From: Opitutus sp. GAS368
GTDB lineage: Bacteria; Verrucomicrobiota; Verrucomicrobiia; Opitutales; Opitutaceae
Length of the DNA stretch: 12,277 bases
Direction of reading: 5' to 3'
NCBI GenBank assembly: GCA_945861645.1
Contig: CAMAVZ010000053.1
Coordinates: forward strand, 1 to 12,277
The position numbers were made by a program, and so were the translations under genes. Position 1 is the stretch's first letter. Every line of letters starts with the position of its first letter. Below, piece by piece: positions 356-9,936 of this stretch. Below the pieces are notes generated by a model. The model saw only the letters and a list, made by a program, of their open reading frames with translations. It had not been told where the DNA came from and made no database searches.

Positions 356-2035
356 ATGCCTACTCAAACTTATGATGCGATCGTGGTTGGCTCTGGCATT
401 AGCGGCGGCTGGGCCGCCAAGGAGCTCACGGAAAAAGGGCTCAAGGTTTTACTCCTCGAGCGCGGCCGCAATATTGAGCACATCAAAGATTATCCGAGCG
501 CCCTTAAGGCTCCGTGGGAATTGCCGCACCGAGGCAAAAGCTCCTTAGCGCTGCGCGAAGCCCATCCCGTGCTGCGCCGCGATTATATTCTCAATGAATC
601 GAATGTGAATTACTGGGCCGATGAAACCACCTGCCCCTATCGTGAAGACAAACCCTTTGACTGGTTTCGGGGCTATCACGTCGGGGGCCGCTCACTTTTG
701 TGGGGACGGCAAAGCTACCGCTGGAGCGACCTCGATTTTGCGGCCAATGTCGAAGAGGGGATCGCGGTCGATTGGCCGCTGCGTTACGCCGAAATGGCCC
801 CGTGGTACGATCACGTAGAGCGCTACGCTGGGATTAGTGGATCCCTCGAGGGCCTACCGCAATTACCCGATGGTCAATTCTTGCCCCCCATGGAACTCAA
901 CTGCGTGGAGCAGGAAGTTGCCCAGCGAATTAAGTCTCACTATGCCGACCAACGCCGGCTCATCATCGGCCGCGTCGCCAATTTAACGGCCCCCCATGCC
1001 GATCGCGTTAACTGTCAGTATCGCGACAAATGCTGGCAAGGGTGTCCCTTCGGCGCCTACTTCAGCACGCAGTCATCCACCCTGCCCGCGGCGGTAAAAA
1101 CCGGCAACCTCACGCTCCGGCCGTTTTCGATCGTCACAAAATTGCTATACGACCGCGATGCGCGCCAAGGAACGGGCGTCGAAATCATCGATGCCGAGAC
1201 CAAACAAGTCCGTGAGTTCAAGGCGCGCATCATCTTTCTCTGCGCCTCTACTTTTCATTCCACGGCCATTTTGATGAACTCGGCCACGGAGACCTGGCCG
1301 GATGGACTCGGTAGCAACAGCGGTGAGTTAGGGCACAATGTGATGGACCACCACTTTCGCGCCGGCGCCTCCGGGACGATGGAAGGCTTCGATGACAAAT
1401 ATGTTTTTGGGCGGCGCCCGAACGGCTTTTATATTCCCCGTTTTCAAAACTTATTAAAAGACCGTCGTGATTATCGACGGGGCTTCGGTTACCAAGGATC
1501 AGCCGGCCGCCTCGGCTGGGAGCGCGAAATTGCAGAATTAGGCATTGGCGCGGAACTCAAGGCCGCGCTGACCGAGCCAGGCCCGTGGAAAATCGGCATG
1601 ACCGGCTTTGGTGAAATCCTTCCCGATCACGCCAACCGGATGTATCTTGATCGCAGCAGCCATGATGCCTGGGGCCTCCCGATTTTCGCGTTCGATTGCG
1701 AACTCAAAGCCAACGAACGCCAAATGCGGCCCGACATGGTAAACGAAGCGGCTGAAATGTTAAGCGCGGCCGGCGCAAAAAATGTGGAGGGTCGCGATAG
1801 CGGCTACACCTTCGGCCGCGGGATTCATGAAATGGGTACGGCGCGGATGGGCCGCGAGCCGAAGACCTCGGTTCTCAATGCGCACAACCAAGTGTGGGAG
1901 GCGAAAAATGTTTTTGTTACCGACGGGGCCTGCATGACCTCCGCCGCCTGCGTTAACCCCTCCCTCACTTACATGGCCCTCACTGCGCGCGCCGCCAGTT
2001 TTGCCGCGGACGAAATGAAAAAAGGAAATTTATGA
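356..2035 (+). CDS. GMC-family FAD oxidoreductase, large subunit of a glycoside/sugar dehydrogenase (glucoside 3-dehydrogenase-like), 559 aa
   Basis: N-terminal FAD-binding Rossmann motif DAIVVGSGISGGWAAKEL, GGRSLLWG, a Cys cluster C220-x5-C226-x3-C230-P (1013-1045), and the C-terminal GMC catalytic His/Asn motifs IHEMGTARMG and VNPSLT. No signal peptide is visible. Confidence 0.93.
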   Translation: MPTQTYDAIVVGSGISGGWAAKELTEKGLKVLLLERGRNIEHIKDYPSALKAPWELPHRGKSSLALREAHPVLRRDYILNESNVNYWADETTCPYREDKPFDWFRGYHVGGRSLLWGRQSYRWSDLDFAANVEEGIAVDWPLRYAEMAPWYDHVERYAGISGSLEGLPQLPDGQFLPPMELNCVEQEVAQRIKSHYADQRRLIIGRVANLTAPHADRVNCQYRDKCWQGCPFGAYFSTQSSTLPAAVKTGNLTLRPFSIVTKLLYDRDARQGTGVEIIDAETKQVREFKARIIFLCASTFHSTAILMNSATETWPDGLGSNSGELGHNVMDHHFRAGASGTMEGFDDKYVFGRRPNGFYIPRFQNLLKDRRDYRRGFGYQGSAGRLGWEREIAELGIGAELKAALTEPGPWKIGMTGFGEILPDHANRMYLDRSSHDAWGLPIFAFDCELKANERQMRPDMVNEAAEMLSAAGAKNVEGRDSGYTFGRGIHEMGTARMGREPKTSVLNAHNQVWEAKNVFVTDGACMTSAACVNPSLTYMALTARAASFAADEMKKGNL

Positions 2036-2646
2036 ACCCCGTCCCACTCGCCCCCGCTCTGATGCACCGCCGAGAAGCCCTCGCCCGCCTCGCGCTCGTC
2101 TTGGGCAGCACCCTCGTGGGGGCCGAGTTCTTTCTCAACGGCACGCGCGCGGTGGGCCAGGAACTTGGTCCACGGTTTTCCGCCGCCGACCAAACCCTGC
2201 TCGATGCCATCGGCGAAACGATCATTCCCGCAACCGACACGCCTGGCGCCCAAGCCGTGCAGATTGGCGCGTTCATGATTATGATGGCCGGGGAATGCTA
2301 CACCCTCCCGCAGCAGCAAATCTTTCACGCTGGTCTCACCACGGTGGATGCGGCCGCCAAAAAATTAACCGGAAAGACTTTTCTGGCGGCATCAGCTACC
2401 GAGCGCACCACGCTGCTTAATCAGTTGGATGCGGAGGCTCGTTTATACTCCAAAGAAAATTCCGCCGAGGCCCCGCCGCATTACTTCAAACTCTACAAGC
2501 AGCTAACCTTGCTGGGTTATTTCACTTCGGAAATCGGGGCTACCCAAGCGCTGCGTTATCTCGAAGTGCCCGGTGCATATCGCGGCAATGATCCTTACCG
2601 CAAAGGCGACCGAGCCTGGTACACGCCCACTGGCGCGAGCCTTTGA
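2032..2646 (+). CDS. Gluconate 2-dehydrogenase subunit 3 family protein (small Tat-signal partner of the GMC enzyme)
   Basis: ATGA start/stop overlap with the GMC gene and an AAAGGA RBS-like sequence at 2021-2026. Twin-arginine signal HRREALARLALVLG (RR at 2068-2073). Family motifs ETIIPATDTPGA and LTLLGYFTSEIGATQALRY..VPG.Y.G. An alternative start exists at ATG 2062. Confidence 0.9.
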   Translation: MNPVPLAPALMHRREALARLALVLGSTLVGAEFFLNGTRAVGQELGPRFSAADQTLLDAIGETIIPATDTPGAQAVQIGAFMIMMAGECYTLPQQQIFHAGLTTVDAAAKKLTGKTFLAASATERTTLLNQLDAEARLYSKENSAEAPPHYFKLYKQLTLLGYFTSEIGATQALRYLEVPGAYRGNDPYRKGDRAWYTPTGASL

Positions 2647-2710
2647 CGGGGGCCTGCGGGGCCGAAGCAAAATCTGCAAACCACCAAGCGGCGAGCCGTC
2701 GTGGAAAGGC

Positions 2711-2741
2711 AAAAAAAGAGCCGGTCAAATTGACCGGCTCT
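2711..2741 (-). terminator. Rho-independent terminator of the pfp-like gene (possibly bidirectional)
   Basis: Perfect 11-bp inverted repeat AGAGCCGGTCA (2717-2727) / TGACCGGCTCT (2731-2741). An A7 run at 2711-2717 gives a U-tract on the minus strand. It sits about 20 nt after the pfp-like stop and between convergent genes. The plus-strand tail (TGCTTT) is weaker. Confidence 0.9.
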
Positions 2742-2763
2742 GCTTTAAAACTGTTTAGCTAAC

Positions 2764-4011
2764 TTAAGCCTCGTGGCTAGGGAGCATCTTATCGACCCGC
2801 GACTTGGTGAGCCGCACGTAGGAGGGCAGCCCATTGTCGTAAGGCACGGCAACTTCGCCTTGGATTAACGGCGTGGCATAGCGGAAGAACTGGAAGTTCA
2901 AGCTAACCCCATCTTCGTTGACCCACTCAGCCGGGAGCTTCTTCAAATTACCCACGACATCGCTCAACGCGGAGAGTCCGGTCTCGCAGGTGTAGATTTC
3001 GCCATCACCCCGCACCAAGGTGACCAGCTTATCGCTCTCGCCATTCACCGCGGCCTTGACCGCAGCTTGGCCCACGAGGAAAGCCTCGTCGGTATCGGTC
3101 TTGGAAACCAAGTGAGCGGCGGCGCGCTGCGCGACACCGAGACGAGCCACCCGGGTCTTCGCCGCGAGTTGGGACTCCACGAGATCTTTCATGAACTCGC
3201 CGACGCCACCGAGCTGTGCTTCCGTGGTGCCACTCTCAACGGAGACGTAATTGCTATCCTTGTCGATCAGGCCTTCGCTGGCGACGACGACGCAATGCTT
3301 TTCCCGTTTGAGAACCTTGCGCACGTCTTCAATGAATTTTTCGCTGCTGAAGGGAACCTCCGGCAGATAAACTAAGTGCGGTGGGTCGTTCGGATGGTCG
3401 CGGCGCTTAGCGAGCGAAGCCCCCGCGGCGAGCCAGCCTGTGTTGCGACCCATAACCTCAATGATGGTCACGAGATCGCCTTGGCCCATGGCATCGGCAT
3501 CGAGCGACAGCTCTTTAACCGTAGCTCCAATAAATTTTAGGGCGCTGCCATAACCAGGGCAGTGGTCGGTCGCCGGCATATCATTCTCGACCGTCTTAGG
3601 TAAACCCATAACGCGCAGATCGTAGCCCTGCTCTTTGGCTAGCTCGCTGATCTTAACCGCAGTTTCCAAAGAGTCGGCATCACCGATATGGAAATAAAAG
3701 CGAATATTGTGCTCCTTGAAGACCGCGAGCACGCGCTCAACGTCTTGGGCTTTCTTCAATTTGGTCCGGCAAGTCCCCAACGCCGCACCGGGCGTAAAGC
3801 GCAGACCACGAATGACCTGCTGTGACTCAGCGGCGAGATCGATGAAATCCTCGTTCAGGAGGCCAAGCACGCCATTCAGCGAGCCATATACTTCCTCAAT
3901 ACAGGAATGATTAAGCGCTTCGGCGACAACACCGGCAACGCTAGCGTTGATGACGGCGGTGGGGCCGCCGGATTGGCCGATCAAACAATTACCGACTAAT
4001 TCTTCTGCCAT
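2764..4011 (-). CDS. Phosphofructokinase family protein, PPi-dependent Pfp-like clade, with substituted active-site motifs, 415 aa
   Basis: Motifs GQSGGPTAVIN, TPGAALGTCR, PKTVEND, TDHCPGYGS, EVMGR..GW, YLPE..F, VASEG, QR.A.H..S..D..EA and PLIQGE place it in the PFK family. Lys in PKT and Asp in xxxDS are PPi-type determinants. Several catalytic positions deviate (see findings), so no gene symbol is given. Confidence 0.92.
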   Translation of the reverse strand: MAEELVGNCLIGQSGGPTAVINASVAGVVAEALNHSCIEEVYGSLNGVLGLLNEDFIDLAAESQQVIRGLRFTPGAALGTCRTKLKKAQDVERVLAVFKEHNIRFYFHIGDADSLETAVKISELAKEQGYDLRVMGLPKTVENDMPATDHCPGYGSALKFIGATVKELSLDADAMGQGDLVTIIEVMGRNTGWLAAGASLAKRRDHPNDPPHLVYLPEVPFSSEKFIEDVRKVLKREKHCVVVASEGLIDKDSNYVSVESGTTEAQLGGVGEFMKDLVESQLAAKTRVARLGVAQRAAAHLVSKTDTDEAFLVGQAAVKAAVNGESDKLVTLVRGDGEIYTCETGLSALSDVVGNLKKLPAEWVNEDGVSLNFQFFRYATPLIQGEVAVPYDNGLPSYVRLTKSRVDKMLPSHEA

Positions 4012-4061
4012 GATATAGGTTGGTTTAAAGCTGGGAAAGAAACGAAACGAACGGTCAAAAA

Positions 4062-4090
4062 AGGCTGCCGCCCGAGTGCTGGCAAATCAA
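4062..4090 (-). promoter_or_regulatory. Candidate sigma70-type promoter of the pfp-like gene
   Basis: On the minus strand TTGATT (4090-4085), a 17-nt spacer, then CAGCCT (4067-4062), which keeps the A and final T of TAnnnT. It lies 50 nt upstream of the ATG. Pattern match only. Confidence 0.35.
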
Positions 4091-4271
4091 ATCTCCCTAA
4101 ATAATACCGGTAGCGCTGACTGGTCAGATCTGGAGCAGGCGCGGCTTGAGCCACTCGGCACTTAGTCCAGCTCGGGTTGAGGACGCGTCCCACCTTCTGC
4201 TGAAAGGATTTACGCGGGCGGCAGATATGCCCGCTGGCGTGAGGCGGGCTAACAGATCCCTCTCATTTTAC

Positions 4272-5711
4272 TTACAACAGCTTGGCTGGCTGGTAGTCAG
4301 CGGCACCCTTATGTTTTTTGGCGAGCGGCTGCACCGCAGCCACAAAAGCATCTACTTGATGCGGGGCGGCGCCGACAAAGCGTTCATTCTGGGCCAAGAC
4401 CTCCAATAATTTCTTTTTGCCCAGCCCAACGCGTTTATCGCCCGCTAGCCGGCTGAGCAAATCGACCTCGCCGCCCGAACGCAGCGCTTTGGCCGCGGCT
4501 AAAGCATGTTCCTTGATCGCTTCGTGCGCAGTCTCGCGGCCGGCCCCCGCCTTCACCGCTTCCATTAAAATCGTGGTGGTCGCCAAGAAAGGGAGATTGC
4601 GCTCGTTTTCTGCGATGATGGCCGCAGGGAAAATCTCCATCTGCCGCAGCACGTTCAGGAAGGTCTCCAGCAAACCATCGATTGCGTAAAACGCATCGGG
4701 CAACGCGACGCGACGCACTACCGAACAGGAAACATCGCCCTCGTTCCACTGATGCCCAGCCAAGTTAGCGGTCATGGTTACGTAGCCTGCAATGATCGTA
4801 GAAAATCCACAGATTCGTTCGCAGTTCCGCGCATTTACTTTGTGCGGCATCGCGGAAGAACCAACCTGCCCCGCCTGAAAACCTTCGGTGAGGAGACCGG
4901 CCCCCGCCATCAAGCGTAACGTCATCGCGCAACTCGCCGCCGCCGCCCCCGCTTGGTGCAGGGCGCTCACGACATCAAAATCAAGCGAACGGGGATAAAC
5001 CTGCCCCACCGCTCCCAGTGATTGCCGAAAGCCCAGATGCTTTACGATCCGCGCTTCCAATTGGTCCACCTTCGTCGTGTCACCACCTAAGAGCGTGAGC
5101 TGATCCAATTGCGTCCCGACCGCACCTTTAAGTCCGCGCACTGGATAACGCACCAATAAATCGGTGATCCGAGCCTGCGCAATTAACAGCTCCTCGCCAA
5201 ACATCGCCAACCGCTTGCCGAGAGTCGTGGGCTGCGCCGGCACATTATGCGTCCGGCCAGTAATCATCACGTCGCGATGCGTCGCCGCTTGCCGGCTCAG
5301 CGCCAGCAGCGCCGCCGCCACTTTAAATTGCACCAACTGCAACGAACGGGCGACCTGCAACTGCTCAACATTTTCGGTTAAATCCCGACTGGTGAGCCCT
5401 AAATGAATAAATTGACGCTTGGCCAAATCTGAAAATTCCTCGATGCGGGCTTTGACGTCATGCAGCGTCACCCGCTCCCGCTCCTTGATGTGGGCGACAT
5501 CGACGTCGCTCCGGACGCGCTCATAATCCTTAATCGCCTCACTGGGAATAGCGACGCCGAGATCTTTCTGGGCCTTCATTACGGCGATCCAAAAATCGCG
5601 CTCTAATAAGATGCGGCCGTGGGCCGACCAGGTCTCTTTCATTGCCGCCGAAGCATAGCGTTCAGCCAGCACATTGGGCGTAGTTTCAGGAGCGGAGACA
5701 TTCGGCTTCAC
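4272..5711 (-). CDS. purB: Adenylosuccinate lyase, about 479 aa
   Basis: Fumarase/ASL superfamily signature GSSAMPHKVN, plus TLHDVKA, HLGLTSRDLTEN, GRTHNVPAQPTT.GKR, KGAVGT and WNEGDVSCSVVRR. The start is placed at the in-frame GTG at 5711, near the conserved PNVLAERYAS. The ORF-track TTG start at 5747 is probably too long. Confidence 0.96.
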   Translation of the reverse strand: MKPNVSAPETTPNVLAERYASAAMKETWSAHGRILLERDFWIAVMKAQKDLGVAIPSEAIKDYERVRSDVDVAHIKERERVTLHDVKARIEEFSDLAKRQFIHLGLTSRDLTENVEQLQVARSLQLVQFKVAAALLALSRQAATHRDVMITGRTHNVPAQPTTLGKRLAMFGEELLIAQARITDLLVRYPVRGLKGAVGTQLDQLTLLGGDTTKVDQLEARIVKHLGFRQSLGAVGQVYPRSLDFDVVSALHQAGAAAASCAMTLRLMAGAGLLTEGFQAGQVGSSAMPHKVNARNCERICGFSTIIAGYVTMTANLAGHQWNEGDVSCSVVRRVALPDAFYAIDGLLETFLNVLRQMEIFPAAIIAENERNLPFLATTTILMEAVKAGAGRETAHEAIKEHALAAAKALRSGGEVDLLSRLAGDKRVGLGKKKLLEVLAQNERFVGAAPHQVDAFVAAVQPLAKKHKGAADYQPAKLL

Positions 5712-5794
5712 GCCAACAACCGTTAGGCAGCGCCTCGTAGTTGCCAATGGAAAAGCGTGTCACCACGCCGACGGCCGCTACCCCCCAGCGGCGA

Positions 5795-8304: not shown

Positions 8305-8457
8305 GCCAAAGAGTCGTGTAACCTATCCCGTTTTTATTAAAATGCCAGCTTCCCGCTAATTATGGGGATTTTTCTATCATTGCGAGAAACCGGCAACCCA
8401 GCAATTCAGCTAGCCGCAGTCGCTCACCGGTTATTCGGCCAAGGGCGGCTCAACTCC

Positions 8458-9936
8458 ATGTCCGCTTCTGCCCACTCCGATGATCTCAAGGCCAAAGTCC
8501 GCGCCCTGCCGGACGGCCCGGGTGTTTATTTAATGAAAGATCGCCTCGGCCGCATCATTTACGTCGGCAAGGCGAAGAATCTAAAAAAGCGCGTCGGCTC
8601 CTATTTTCAGCCCGGCCGCGCCCGCGCTTTGCGCCATCAGCCGAAAATTCGGACCCTGATCGAAATGATCACTGATTTAGAAATTCTCGAAGTAAAATCC
8701 GAACCCGAAGCCCTGCTCCTCGAAGGTAAACTGATCAAACAATGGCGGCCGAAATATAACACCGACTTTACGGATGATAAACGCTTCCTGCTCGTCCGCC
8801 TCGACCTGGAGGCCCCTCTGCCTCGTTTCGTGCTCACTCGTTTCCGCAAGGATACGCGCTCGCGGTACTTCGGCCCTTTTGTGCATTCCGGCCTCCTGCG
8901 CAAAACCCTGACCTCAATGCGCCAACGCTTCGGGATTATGCTCGCCGATGCTGCGCCAAAAAAAATCACCGCCGATACCTGGGAGTTATACGGCGACGCC
9001 CGGGCCGAACTGACGCCTTGGCCCAATGTGGTCACCGCAACAGAATACCGCACCCGCGTGGACGCCGCCGCTGAGTTTCTCGACGGCAAAAGCCGCGAAT
9101 GGCTCACCACGCTGCGGACCGAAATGAGCGCCCGCGCCGCTAAACAAGAATACGAAAGGGCGGCCGAATTACGCGATGTGGTCTTGGCGCTGGAACAAAC
9201 CTTGGCGCGCACCCGCAAATTTACCCGCGACCTCACCCAACTACGGTCCGACGACGCGGGTCTCCAGCAATTACAAACGGCCCTTGGGCTTTCGGCTCCG
9301 CCCACTCATATTGAGTGTTTTGATATCTCGCATATCTCCGGAACTTTTGTCGTCGCCTCGCTGGTGCATTTCACGAATGGCCGCCCCGACCGCGCCCAGT
9401 ATCGCCGCTTTGCGATTAAAAGTTTTATCGGCAATGATGACTTTAAGGCGATGGAAGAAGTCGTCGCGCGGCGTTATCGCCGCTTACTCCAGGAGCGAAA
9501 AACCTTCCCTGATTTAGTCGTGATTGATGGCGGCCGGGGTCAGATTGGGGCGGCCCTAAAATCTTTTGTGGAACTCGCTTGTCCGCCCCCGCCGCTGATC
9601 GGCCTCGCCAAGAAAATGGAGACGATCATTTTTCCCGATGCCCGTCCGCCGCTAAATTTACCCCTCAATCACGCCGGCCTGAATATTCTGCAACGTCTGC
9701 GCGATGAAGCGCATCGCTTCGCCAACACCTATAACGCCGACCTCCGTTCGCGGAAAATTAAAGAAAGCGTCCTCGACGATTTCCCCGGACTTGGCCCGGT
9801 GCGGCGCCGCGCGTTGCTCGCCCACTTTACGTCCCTCGCTAAATTGCGCACCGCCACCTCCGACGAAATTAGCGCGGTGCCTGGCTTTGGCGGGAAAATT
9901 GCCACCGAATTATACCAATTCCTGCAAACGAGCTGA
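8458..9936 (+). CDS. uvrC: Excinuclease ABC subunit C (compact form, about 492 aa)
   Basis: GIY-YIG domain (PGVYLMKD..IIYVGKAKNLKKRV.SYF, EALLLE.KLIK..PKYN), UVR motif (QEYERAAELRD), RNase H-like domain (IECFDISH, DDFKAM, DLVVIDGGRGQ, LRDEAHRFA) and tandem HhH (PGLGP, VPGFG). The start is placed at ATG 8458, just before LKAKVRALP. The ORF-track start at 8362 adds a non-homologous extension. Confidence 0.96.
   Translation: MSASAHSDDLKAKVRALPDGPGVYLMKDRLGRIIYVGKAKNLKKRVGSYFQPGRARALRHQPKIRTLIEMITDLEILEVKSEPEALLLEGKLIKQWRPKYNTDFTDDKRFLLVRLDLEAPLPRFVLTRFRKDTRSRYFGPFVHSGLLRKTLTSMRQRFGIMLADAAPKKITADTWELYGDARAELTPWPNVVTATEYRTRVDAAAEFLDGKSREWLTTLRTEMSARAAKQEYERAAELRDVVLALEQTLARTRKFTRDLTQLRSDDAGLQQLQTALGLSAPPTHIECFDISHISGTFVVASLVHFTNGRPDRAQYRRFAIKSFIGNDDFKAMEEVVARRYRRLLQERKTFPDLVVIDGGRGQIGAALKSFVELACPPPPLIGLAKKMETIIFPDARPPLNLPLNHAGLNILQRLRDEAHRFANTYNADLRSRKIKESVLDDFPGLGPVRRRALLAHFTSLAKLRTATSDEISAVPGFGGKIATELYQFLQTS

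Follow-up and report, generated by a model that had tools for sequence, protein, structure and literature searches.

The stretch of DNA analysed here (the window) comprises 12,277 nucleotides from Opitutus sp. GAS368 (contig CAMAVZ010000053.1 of assembly GCA_945861645.1) and carries on its reverse strand, at positions 2764-4011, an intact open reading frame (ORF) for a homologue of the pyrophosphate (PPi)-dependent phosphofructokinases (PFKs). The gene is a form of this glycolytic enzyme from freshwater Verrucomicrobia. The ORF begins with ATG, has no internal stop codon and encodes a protein of 415 residues (P0001). This protein matches the PFK family profile PF00365 with 193.1 bits against a cut-off of 30.9, its residues 9-319 aligning with profile positions 2-275 of 277; and it matches the PRK14072 subfamily of PPi-PFKs (NF010675) end to end, with 498.5 bits against the curated NCBIfam cut-off of 273 (residues 7-411 on profile positions 4-414 of 416). 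An AlphaFold2 model of the protein, built on a 31-sequence alignment, has the predicted two-domain PFK fold, with a mean predicted local distance difference test score of 92.6 and a predicted template-modelling (TM) score of 0.91, and it is of low confidence only at residues 260-265, inside a shortened loop. Foldseek aligned the model with 3HNO_A at TM 0.91/0.95 and a root-mean-square deviation (rmsd) of 1.6 Å, and the list of hits was filled by PFKs. The nearest solved structures in a sequence search were likewise the PPi-PFKs of Marinobacter aquaeolei (PDB 3K2Q, E=8e-94) and Nitrosospira multiformis (3HNO, E=1.2e-89), which resemble the model at TM 0.90-0.91 and rmsd 1.5-1.6 Å over about 409 columns. 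According to the available part of a 2025 review, both are unpublished structural-genomics entries (PMC12203962).

An earlier note on this DNA, made from its letters alone, had described a full-length PPi-PFK homologue with several substituted catalytic motifs. The full-length frame of 415 codons is indeed free of internal stops, and each motif then named (GDADS, PKTVEND, ESGTTEAQLGG and LGVAQR, besides QSGG, MGR, SEG, Lys139 and Asp113) is found at the codons assigned to it. The features of the locus are the following.

2764..4011, (-) strand: coding sequence of the remodelled PRK14072-type PPi-phosphofructokinase homologue, 415 amino acids (P0001), by profile and model matches
3964..3975, (-) strand: QSGG, residues 13-16, N-terminal phosphate-binding loop, retained
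3670..3684, (-) strand: G110-D-A-D-S, residues 110-114, phosphoryl-donor/metal loop; canonical form GGNDS; the PPi-signature residue Asp113 is kept
3580..3600, (-) strand: PKTVEND, residues 138-144; the PPi-signature residue Lys139 is kept, and the general-base Asp is replaced by Glu142 (3586-3588)
3445..3453, (-) strand: MGR, residues 187-189, fructose-6-phosphate (F6P) site, retained and invariant
3271..3279, (-) strand: SEG, residues 245-247, with Glu246 invariant
3205..3237, (-) strand: ESGTTEAQLGG, residues 259-269, a shortened loop; canonical form ..TDAFGHAQLGG, a deletion of four residues
3124..3141, (-) strand: LGVAQR, residues 291-296, the normal state of the clade, with Gln295-Arg296 invariant
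4272..5747, (-) strand: purB, for adenylosuccinate lyase, immediately upstream in the same orientation, the synteny anchor for positional orthology with canonical pfp
2707..2741, (-) strand: intrinsic-terminator-like hairpin with an 11-bp stem and a T-run, about 23 nt past the stop codon

The residues at these sites were compared between three groups of sequences: 137 members of the clade that shares Glu142 with the window protein, 54 canonical orthologues from Opitutaceae, and 76 canonical orthologues from other families of Opitutales. The two residues diagnostic of PPi use, the Asp in GGxD and the Lys in PKTIDxD, are both present, Asp113 being nearly invariant in the clade and Lys139 invariant; and the F6P site is complete, with Met187-Gly188-Arg189, Glu246 and Gln295-Arg296 all invariant. 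In the part of the review available to us, the Asp of GGDD is placed in ATP's alpha-phosphate site, where it fixes the register of PPi; a PPi phosphate is contacted by the Lys of PKTIDxD; and the general base is the first Asp of T-I-D-N-D, Asp127 in Escherichia coli (PMC12203962). It is at this last position that the window protein departs from its relatives, with Glu142 in 137/137 clade members as against Asp in 130/130 canonical orthologues. The donor loop departs too, since G-D-A replaces the usual Gly-Gly followed by Asn, Asp or Gly. The canonical loop of the PRK14072 subfamily is GGNDS (GGGDS in 3K2Q and 3HNO) and not GGDDS, and therefore Ala112 replaces Asn, not Asp. The earlier suggestion that the metal-binding residue equivalent to Asp103 had been lost does not stand, the canonical residue at position 112 being Asn or Gly; by sequence comparison the distinctive change in the loop is that of the second Gly to Asp111. 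Nor is LGVAQR a substitution, as had been supposed: LG[IVLM]xQR is the normal state among canonical Opitutaceae orthologues, and Gln295-Arg296 does not vary. The two solved structures, 38-39% identical to the window protein, differ from it in reading GGGDS, KTVDND, D(A)FGH and DYLQR.

The names of its homologues place the window within the Opitutaceae (Verrucomicrobiota), close to Lacunisphaera, Oleiharenicola (including the cultured Oleiharenicola lentus 23ND54W-5) and Candidatus Didemnitutus. Among the best 120 database homologues (75-100% identity), K[TS][IV]END is read in 117 and Asp111 in 119. These comparisons, which the earlier note had suggested making, show that GD.DS/KT.END marks a conserved subclade: the substitutions define a conserved clade of sequences and are not private to this assembly, and the same GDADS and Glu142 residues recur in the independent assemblies L064, L065 and L066-L085. 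The single sequence among the 120 that reads GGNDS is P0078 (82% identity), which combines a canonical FFYAGGNDS loop with KT.END and may have arisen by recombination or by chimeric assembly.

Conservation of the new residues is as tight as that of the residues they replaced. Within the 137 clade members Glu142 is found in 100%, Asp111 in 99% and Glu116 in 98%; Gly111, Asn112 and Asp142 are 100% conserved in the 130 canonical orthologues, which come from 24 families; and in the wider family Gly111 is found in 110/133 rows and Asp142 in 112/133. The clade keeps 172 of the 188 positions that do not vary appreciably among canonical sequences and so count as conserved. Nine of the 16 that differ are fixed at a frequency of at least 95% (I51L, F106Y, Y108H, G111D, D116E, D142E, I194L, I214V and M329L), and five of the 16 fall in the donor loop, residues 104-117 (hypergeometric p=0.0013, for a segment picked post hoc). 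A further 96 positions are invariant across all three groups, including Gly110, Ser114, Lys139, Asn143, Asp144, Met187-Gly188-Arg189, Glu246 and Gln295-Arg296; and the remaining ligand and catalytic residues of the clade are likewise unchanged in all 137 members (Lys139, Thr140, Asn143, Asp144, MGR, Glu246, Gln295-Arg296 and QSGG). The TDAFGH loop is near-invariant in the canonical enzymes, whereas in the Glu142 clade it is variable and has three deletion lengths. With a model at TM 0.91 to the known fold, these figures bear out the earlier view of changes clustered at the active site of a preserved scaffold. One clade member, L073 (an orthologue at 4001-5236 in a metagenome-assembled genome), has an interrupted frame, with an ORF of just 165 residues from the start codon, which may be an assembly error or a pseudogene.

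The gene is maintained by purifying selection and is not decaying, as the earlier note had also proposed. The ratio of nonsynonymous to synonymous substitution rates (dN/dS), estimated by the Nei-Gojobori method (NG86), had a median of 0.162 in the Glu142 clade (22 coding sequences, 202/231 pairs usable) and of 0.201 among canonical orthologues (54 sequences, 1296/1431 pairs usable), values that are rough owing to saturation and codon bias; the closest pairs within the clade gave 0.02-0.1. The codons of the new residues show synonymous turnover, Glu142 being encoded by GAG in 20 sequences and GAA in 2, Asp111 by GAC in 18 and GAT in 4, and Glu116 by GAA in 9 and GAG in 12. When contigs of four public runs were compared with positions 2700-4100 of the window, all 25 of the 25 strain differences listed fell on third codon positions, counted from the start at 4011. 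None lay in the GDADS or Glu142 codons, either in two DNA contigs that cover the whole stretch, from runs which may include the window's own source, or in contigs from RNA libraries; together with the independent assemblies named above, this disposes of the assembly error that had been raised as a possible cause. The RNA-library contigs, from two libraries of one study, span 2752-4011, which is not in itself proof of transcription. These contigs (X9 and X10) leave 2700-2746 and 4016-4100 uncovered while the DNA contigs continue, which does not count as evidence of transcript ends.

In a survey of the Opitutaceae, 60 genera were represented by a single genome each (61 genomes with that of the window), and the orthologue was found in 60 genomes, in 51 of them as the canonical GGNDS / KT[IV]DND / TDAFGH form and in nine as a variant. 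Six variants belong to the window lineage (genomes G000, G043, G046, G059, G029 and G011). The other three (G013, G010 and G021) form a second variant lineage with the loops GDNES, GDSDS and GDSES, two of the three reading KTINND. Directly upstream and on the same strand, purB is found at 32/61 family loci (within 1.5-kb flanks) and at 28/36 named loci, beside canonical and variant genes alike, which makes the window gene the canonical enzyme's orthologue by position and not an extra paralogue. It shares with the canonical Opitutales enzyme this position, its length, the 172/188 conserved positions, and the residues QSGG, Asp113, Lys139, Asn143, Asp144, MGR, Glu246 and Gln-Arg; it differs in GGNDS to GDADS, KTIDND to KTVEND, the deletion of four residues at TDAFGH, and F106Y, Y108H and D116E. 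Sequence identity is 73-80% within the variant subclade, and 58-73% to Opitutaceae orthologues outside it. Genome G033 has two canonical orthologue copies or fragments (L057 and L063), both at contig ends, which may reflect either a duplication or a split assembly.

The variant motifs form a nested series, from GGSDS with KSIDND (L008, L091), through GD.D[AS] with K[TS]IDND (L005, L086, L090, L092), to GD.[DE]S with K[TS][IV]END in the Glu142 clade that includes the window. FastTree trees, which give only local support and carry long-branch warnings on degenerate rows, agree with this series, and the remodelling was therefore stepwise and not a single burst. Asn112 stands beside Asp111 in GDNES (L059) and GDNDA (G095) but is gone from further Asp111 loops, GDADS and GDSDS among them, a pattern which is consistent with Asp111 having made Asn112 dispensable.

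The genome of the window (84% complete) holds one further gene with a PF00365 match, at L002:1318-2565(-), again of 415 residues. Its product is a PPi-PFK of the PRK06555 type (NF005121, score 678 bits, cut-off 395) that reads GGDDT, PKTIDND, MGR and SEG; the second canonical pfk/pfp whose presence the earlier note had proposed to check is therefore there, and to judge from its motifs it would be a competent PFK. It is of the same superfamily as the window protein and shares the PPi signatures, but it is of a different subfamily, shows only some 31% identity where the two match, and is fully canonical. PRK06555-type motifs are canonical in 21/21 genomes examined, and Oleiharenicola lentus (G178) has exactly these two PFK genes, the PRK14072-type variant and the PRK06555-type. 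A division of the PRK06555-type enzymes into two subtypes (Pfam alignment ends 1-275 and 1-253) that would track the variant was considered and rejected, the canonical motifs being identical in 21/21.

The pattern was followed across 121 Opitutales genomes, of which 120, from 41 families, have the orthologue; its state, assigned by a motif rule, is canonical in 81 and variant or degenerate in 39. All 39 variant genomes have two or more PF00365 matches, as against 54 of the 81 canonical genomes, and all 27 genomes with a sole PFK are canonical (raw Fisher p=9e-6), as are 19/19 sole-PFK genomes in the Opitutaceae survey. The canonical PRK14072-type enzyme is thus often the sole PFK of a genome, and the variant never is. 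The raw p value overstates the evidence, since the variant state changes only about five times on the gene tree, and the counts of matches may include fragments; an independent-pairs test of the variant against a second PFK gave p=1, with only four or five usable pairs and hence no power. That the variant never stands alone suggests a cost to housekeeping PFK function and is the strongest argument for one, though weaker than it looks. Asp111 is found in 30/39 variant genomes and 0/81 canonical ones, and it has four or more origins: two in Opitutaceae, one in family f36, and at least one in a degenerate grade; Glu142 also occurs in families f4, f31, f37 and f40. One variant genome (G059, GDHDT/KTIEND) has an ATP-type PFK and, at 84% completeness, no PRK06555-type match.

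No fructose-1,6-bisphosphatase (FBPase) of the families PF00316, PF03320, PF06874 or PF01950 was found in five Opitutaceae genomes (G178, G043, G046, G002 and G015), four of which are 99% complete, and in G000 searches for FBPase classes I and II were both negative. G002 and G015 also have a single PFK. PPi-PFK probably serves gluconeogenesis too in these Opitutaceae. A changed substrate was considered in the form of sedoheptulose-7-phosphate and a missing transaldolase, and rejected: G000 lacks a PF00923 match, but 56/61 family genomes are positive, including G043, of the same genus and 99% complete. The best explanation of the gap is that G000 is 84% complete. Across the 61 family genomes no link between transaldolase and variant PFK was seen.

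Further divergence of the same protein lineage is seen in strongly reduced Opitutales genomes of 0.8-1.0 Mb. Families f4, f8, f37, f39 and others have degenerate PRK14072-like proteins (representatives P0124-P0134; loci L100-L103, L193, L198, L199, L201, L204, L208-L212 and L214-L217) which are full length, yet lack Lys139, the Asp residues of DND, MGR and often Gln-Arg (for example GD.EA and PxSxxNx). They share Asp111 with the window protein, to which they are 43-50% identical, and always occur beside another PFK, which was PRK06555-like in 5/5 genomes checked; they differ from it in having lost the residues just named, which the window protein keeps. Family f2 keeps Arg189, Glu246 and Gln-Arg although its catalytic Asp residues are lost. 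Retention of such copies in reduced genomes suggests a non-catalytic function somewhere in this protein lineage. The '..EA' end of the degenerate donor loop (GD.EA) resembles what we take to be the motif of the C-terminal halves of eukaryotic PFKs, a likeness that a PDB search with the degenerate P0125 could not test, as it matched only 3K2Q, 3HNO and trypanosome PFKs. A separate observation in this family is P0178, a protein of 2620 residues with six stretches that match the query (294.9 bits, 26% identity), apparently a giant protein of multiple PFK domains.

The reading that we favour, with a rough probability of 0.45, is that the window protein is a sub- or neofunctionalised enzyme, probably still catalytic, whose metal/donor site has been rebuilt. 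Its counterpart in most Opitutales, the purB-linked PRK14072-type PPi-PFK, is canonical and often the sole PFK. Within the lineage of Lacunisphaera and Oleiharenicola the donor loop passed from GGNDS through GGSDS to GD.DS, accompanied by F106Y, Y108H and D116E; the general-base Asp next gave way to Glu142; the TDAFGH loop was freed from constraint; and purifying selection later froze the new residues. A canonical PRK06555-type PPi-PFK in the same genome would be able to carry the housekeeping interconversion of F6P and FBP (fructose 1,6-bisphosphate). The window protein would still bind sugar phosphate and PPi/Mg, Asp111 relieving Asn112 as a contact to metal or phosphate and Glu142 serving as a longer base, so that phosphate transfer would probably be kept; the resulting enzyme would differ in its kinetics, its use of metal or its acceptor and would have ceased to be the main PFK. 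We favour continued catalysis because the replacements preserve carboxylates (Gly-Asn to Asp-Ala, and Asp to Glu twice), because the new residues are frozen as tightly as those they replaced, and because the other ligands of PPi, Mg and sugar phosphate are invariant throughout the clade, unlike in the degenerate lineages. Frozen new residues and invariant ligands are to be expected of a site rebuilt to work no less than of a dead one. Several points weigh against this. The available part of the 2025 review names Asp as the general base and mentions no such variant (PMC12203962). Three normally invariant active-site elements have changed together, and the TDAFGH loop is decaying; Asp111 and Glu142 recur in Opitutales lineages that later lost Lys139, MGR and the rest; and variant copies occur only where another PFK exists (39/39), which is expected if PFK activity is impaired. 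Nor do we know of an active enzyme that has Glu as its general base, or one in which Asp has taken the place of the second Gly in the GG loop.

The same points would be explained if the protein were a non-catalytic pseudoenzyme that keeps the pocket for sugar phosphate and PPi but performs no transfer, sensing a metabolite or regulating the PRK06555-type PPi-PFK as its partner, and standing at an early stage of a path that other Opitutales lineages have completed. This is the main alternative, and we hold it somewhat less probable than the favoured reading. Loss of the general-base Asp, a carboxylate at the second Gly of the GG loop and decay of the TDAFGH loop all speak for it, as do the recurrence of Asp111 in variant and never in canonical genomes, the restriction of sole PFKs to the canonical form, the survival of full-length degenerate copies beside a PRK06555-like PFK in genomes as small as 0.8-1.0 Mb, and the sugar-phosphate residues that family f2 retains without its catalytic Asp residues. 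Against it speak the 137 clade sequences, in which the catalytic and ligand residues have drifted no further (with Lys139, Asn143, Asp144 and MGR unvarying), dN/dS does not exceed that of canonical orthologues, and the replacements are conservative, carboxylate-preserving and frozen where those of the degenerate lineages are scattered. The association with a second PFK, moreover, depends on only about five state changes, the test of independent pairs has no power, and there is no universal type of partner, as the ATP-type PFK of G059 illustrates. Broader still is the idea that Opitutales have repeatedly converted this enzyme into a pseudoenzyme, the window protein being an early and well-ordered stage; we consider it rather unlikely. 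Given a PRK06555-type PPi-PFK, the PRK14072-type enzyme would repeatedly gain a carboxylate in the donor loop (Gly111 to Asp, with at least four origins) and then lose its catalytic Asp, to become a non-catalytic regulator or sensor that binds sugar phosphate and PPi and is kept even in 0.8-Mb genomes. At the opposite extreme, the window protein might be an ordinary PPi-PFK in which Asp to Glu and Gly-Asn to Asp-Ala are near-neutral and compensate each other, with essentially normal activity on F6P and FBP, the two PFKs being merely redundant or differently regulated isozymes. Retention of Asp113, Lys139 and all the F6P-binding residues, strong purifying selection, the presence of two or more PFKs in 54/81 canonical genomes as well (two PFKs being common in the order), and the value of a reversible PPi-PFK in bacteria in which no FBPase was found would accord with this. 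Nevertheless we regard it as improbable: normal PFK activity is unlikely because three invariant elements of the active site have changed and because the variant never stands alone (0/27 sole-PFK genomes), and the complete conservation of Gly111, Asn112 and Asp142 in 130 canonical orthologues (and their prevalence, for Gly111 and Asp142, in the wider family), the clustering of 5/16 changed positions in the donor loop (at the post hoc p given above) and the deletion of the conserved TDAFGH loop tell the same way. Decay of the gene and assembly artefact, to which the unusual residues and the interrupted frame of L073 might have pointed, are excluded by the intact 415-residue frame, by the same residues in 117-119 of the best 120 homologues and in independent DNA and RNA-library contigs, by dN/dS of 0.02-0.1 for the closest pairs, and by 25/25 polymorphisms at third positions.

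In PFK, a textbook enzyme, the general-base Asp and the Gly-Gly donor loop are regarded as invariant. Both have been replaced throughout a cultivable clade (Lacunisphaera/Oleiharenicola, with Oleiharenicola lentus among its members), and selection on the result matches in strength that on the canonical form. Activity of the protein would mean that the active site of PFK can accept a Glu base and a metal ligand in a new place; inactivity would make it a bacterial PFK pseudoenzyme, and we found no paper on such proteins. Known parallels are the alpha subunit of plant PFP and the C-terminal halves of eukaryotic ATP-PFKs, in which catalytic residues are replaced and the fold and sugar-phosphate pocket kept, beside a catalytic PFK. 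The analogy with plant PFP-alpha is a possibility for the window protein, which differs in that its substitutions are few and conservative, and its putative partner belongs to another PFK subfamily and is not a recent paralogue. Should recurrent conversion be true, it would provide a bacterial parallel to plant PFP-alpha and to the regulatory halves of eukaryotic PFKs. The series from canonical through remodelled to fully degenerate proteins, always beside a second PFK and in bacteria from which FBPase is apparently absent too (four families searched, five Opitutaceae genomes), amounts to a natural experiment on the release of a central enzyme from its job. Our literature search found no paper on this PFK variant, on this clade or on non-catalytic bacterial PFKs. 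In their available parts, PMC12203962 uses none of the terms 'regulatory subunit', 'non-catalytic' and 'catalytically inactive', and PMC7589939 and PMC12306168 have nothing on these residues.

Of the regulatory signals claimed for the gene in the earlier note, the terminator was borne out and the promoter was not. The terminator-like hairpin at 2741-2717 (-), which had been called strong, has an 11-bp stem with seven GC pairs and is followed by a T-run. The sole sigma-70-like match (4037-4010) overlaps the ATG, and one such match was found where 0.7 is expected from shuffled sequence; it was rejected as a promoter. Converging on the pfp terminator from the other side is a gene pair at 356-2646 (+), with a 4-nt overlap, for a GMC-family FAD oxidoreductase (559 residues) and a protein like subunit 3 of gluconate 2-dehydrogenase (204 residues); among the loci searched, this pair adjoins pfp only in the nearest relatives, L064, L065 and L089. 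Elsewhere in the window, at 8362-9936 (+), lies a UvrC homologue of just 524 residues, which UvrC models match in two separate stretches. It scores above the TIGR00194 cut-off and below that of NF001824, and the central segment of a typical UvrC is seemingly missing from it.

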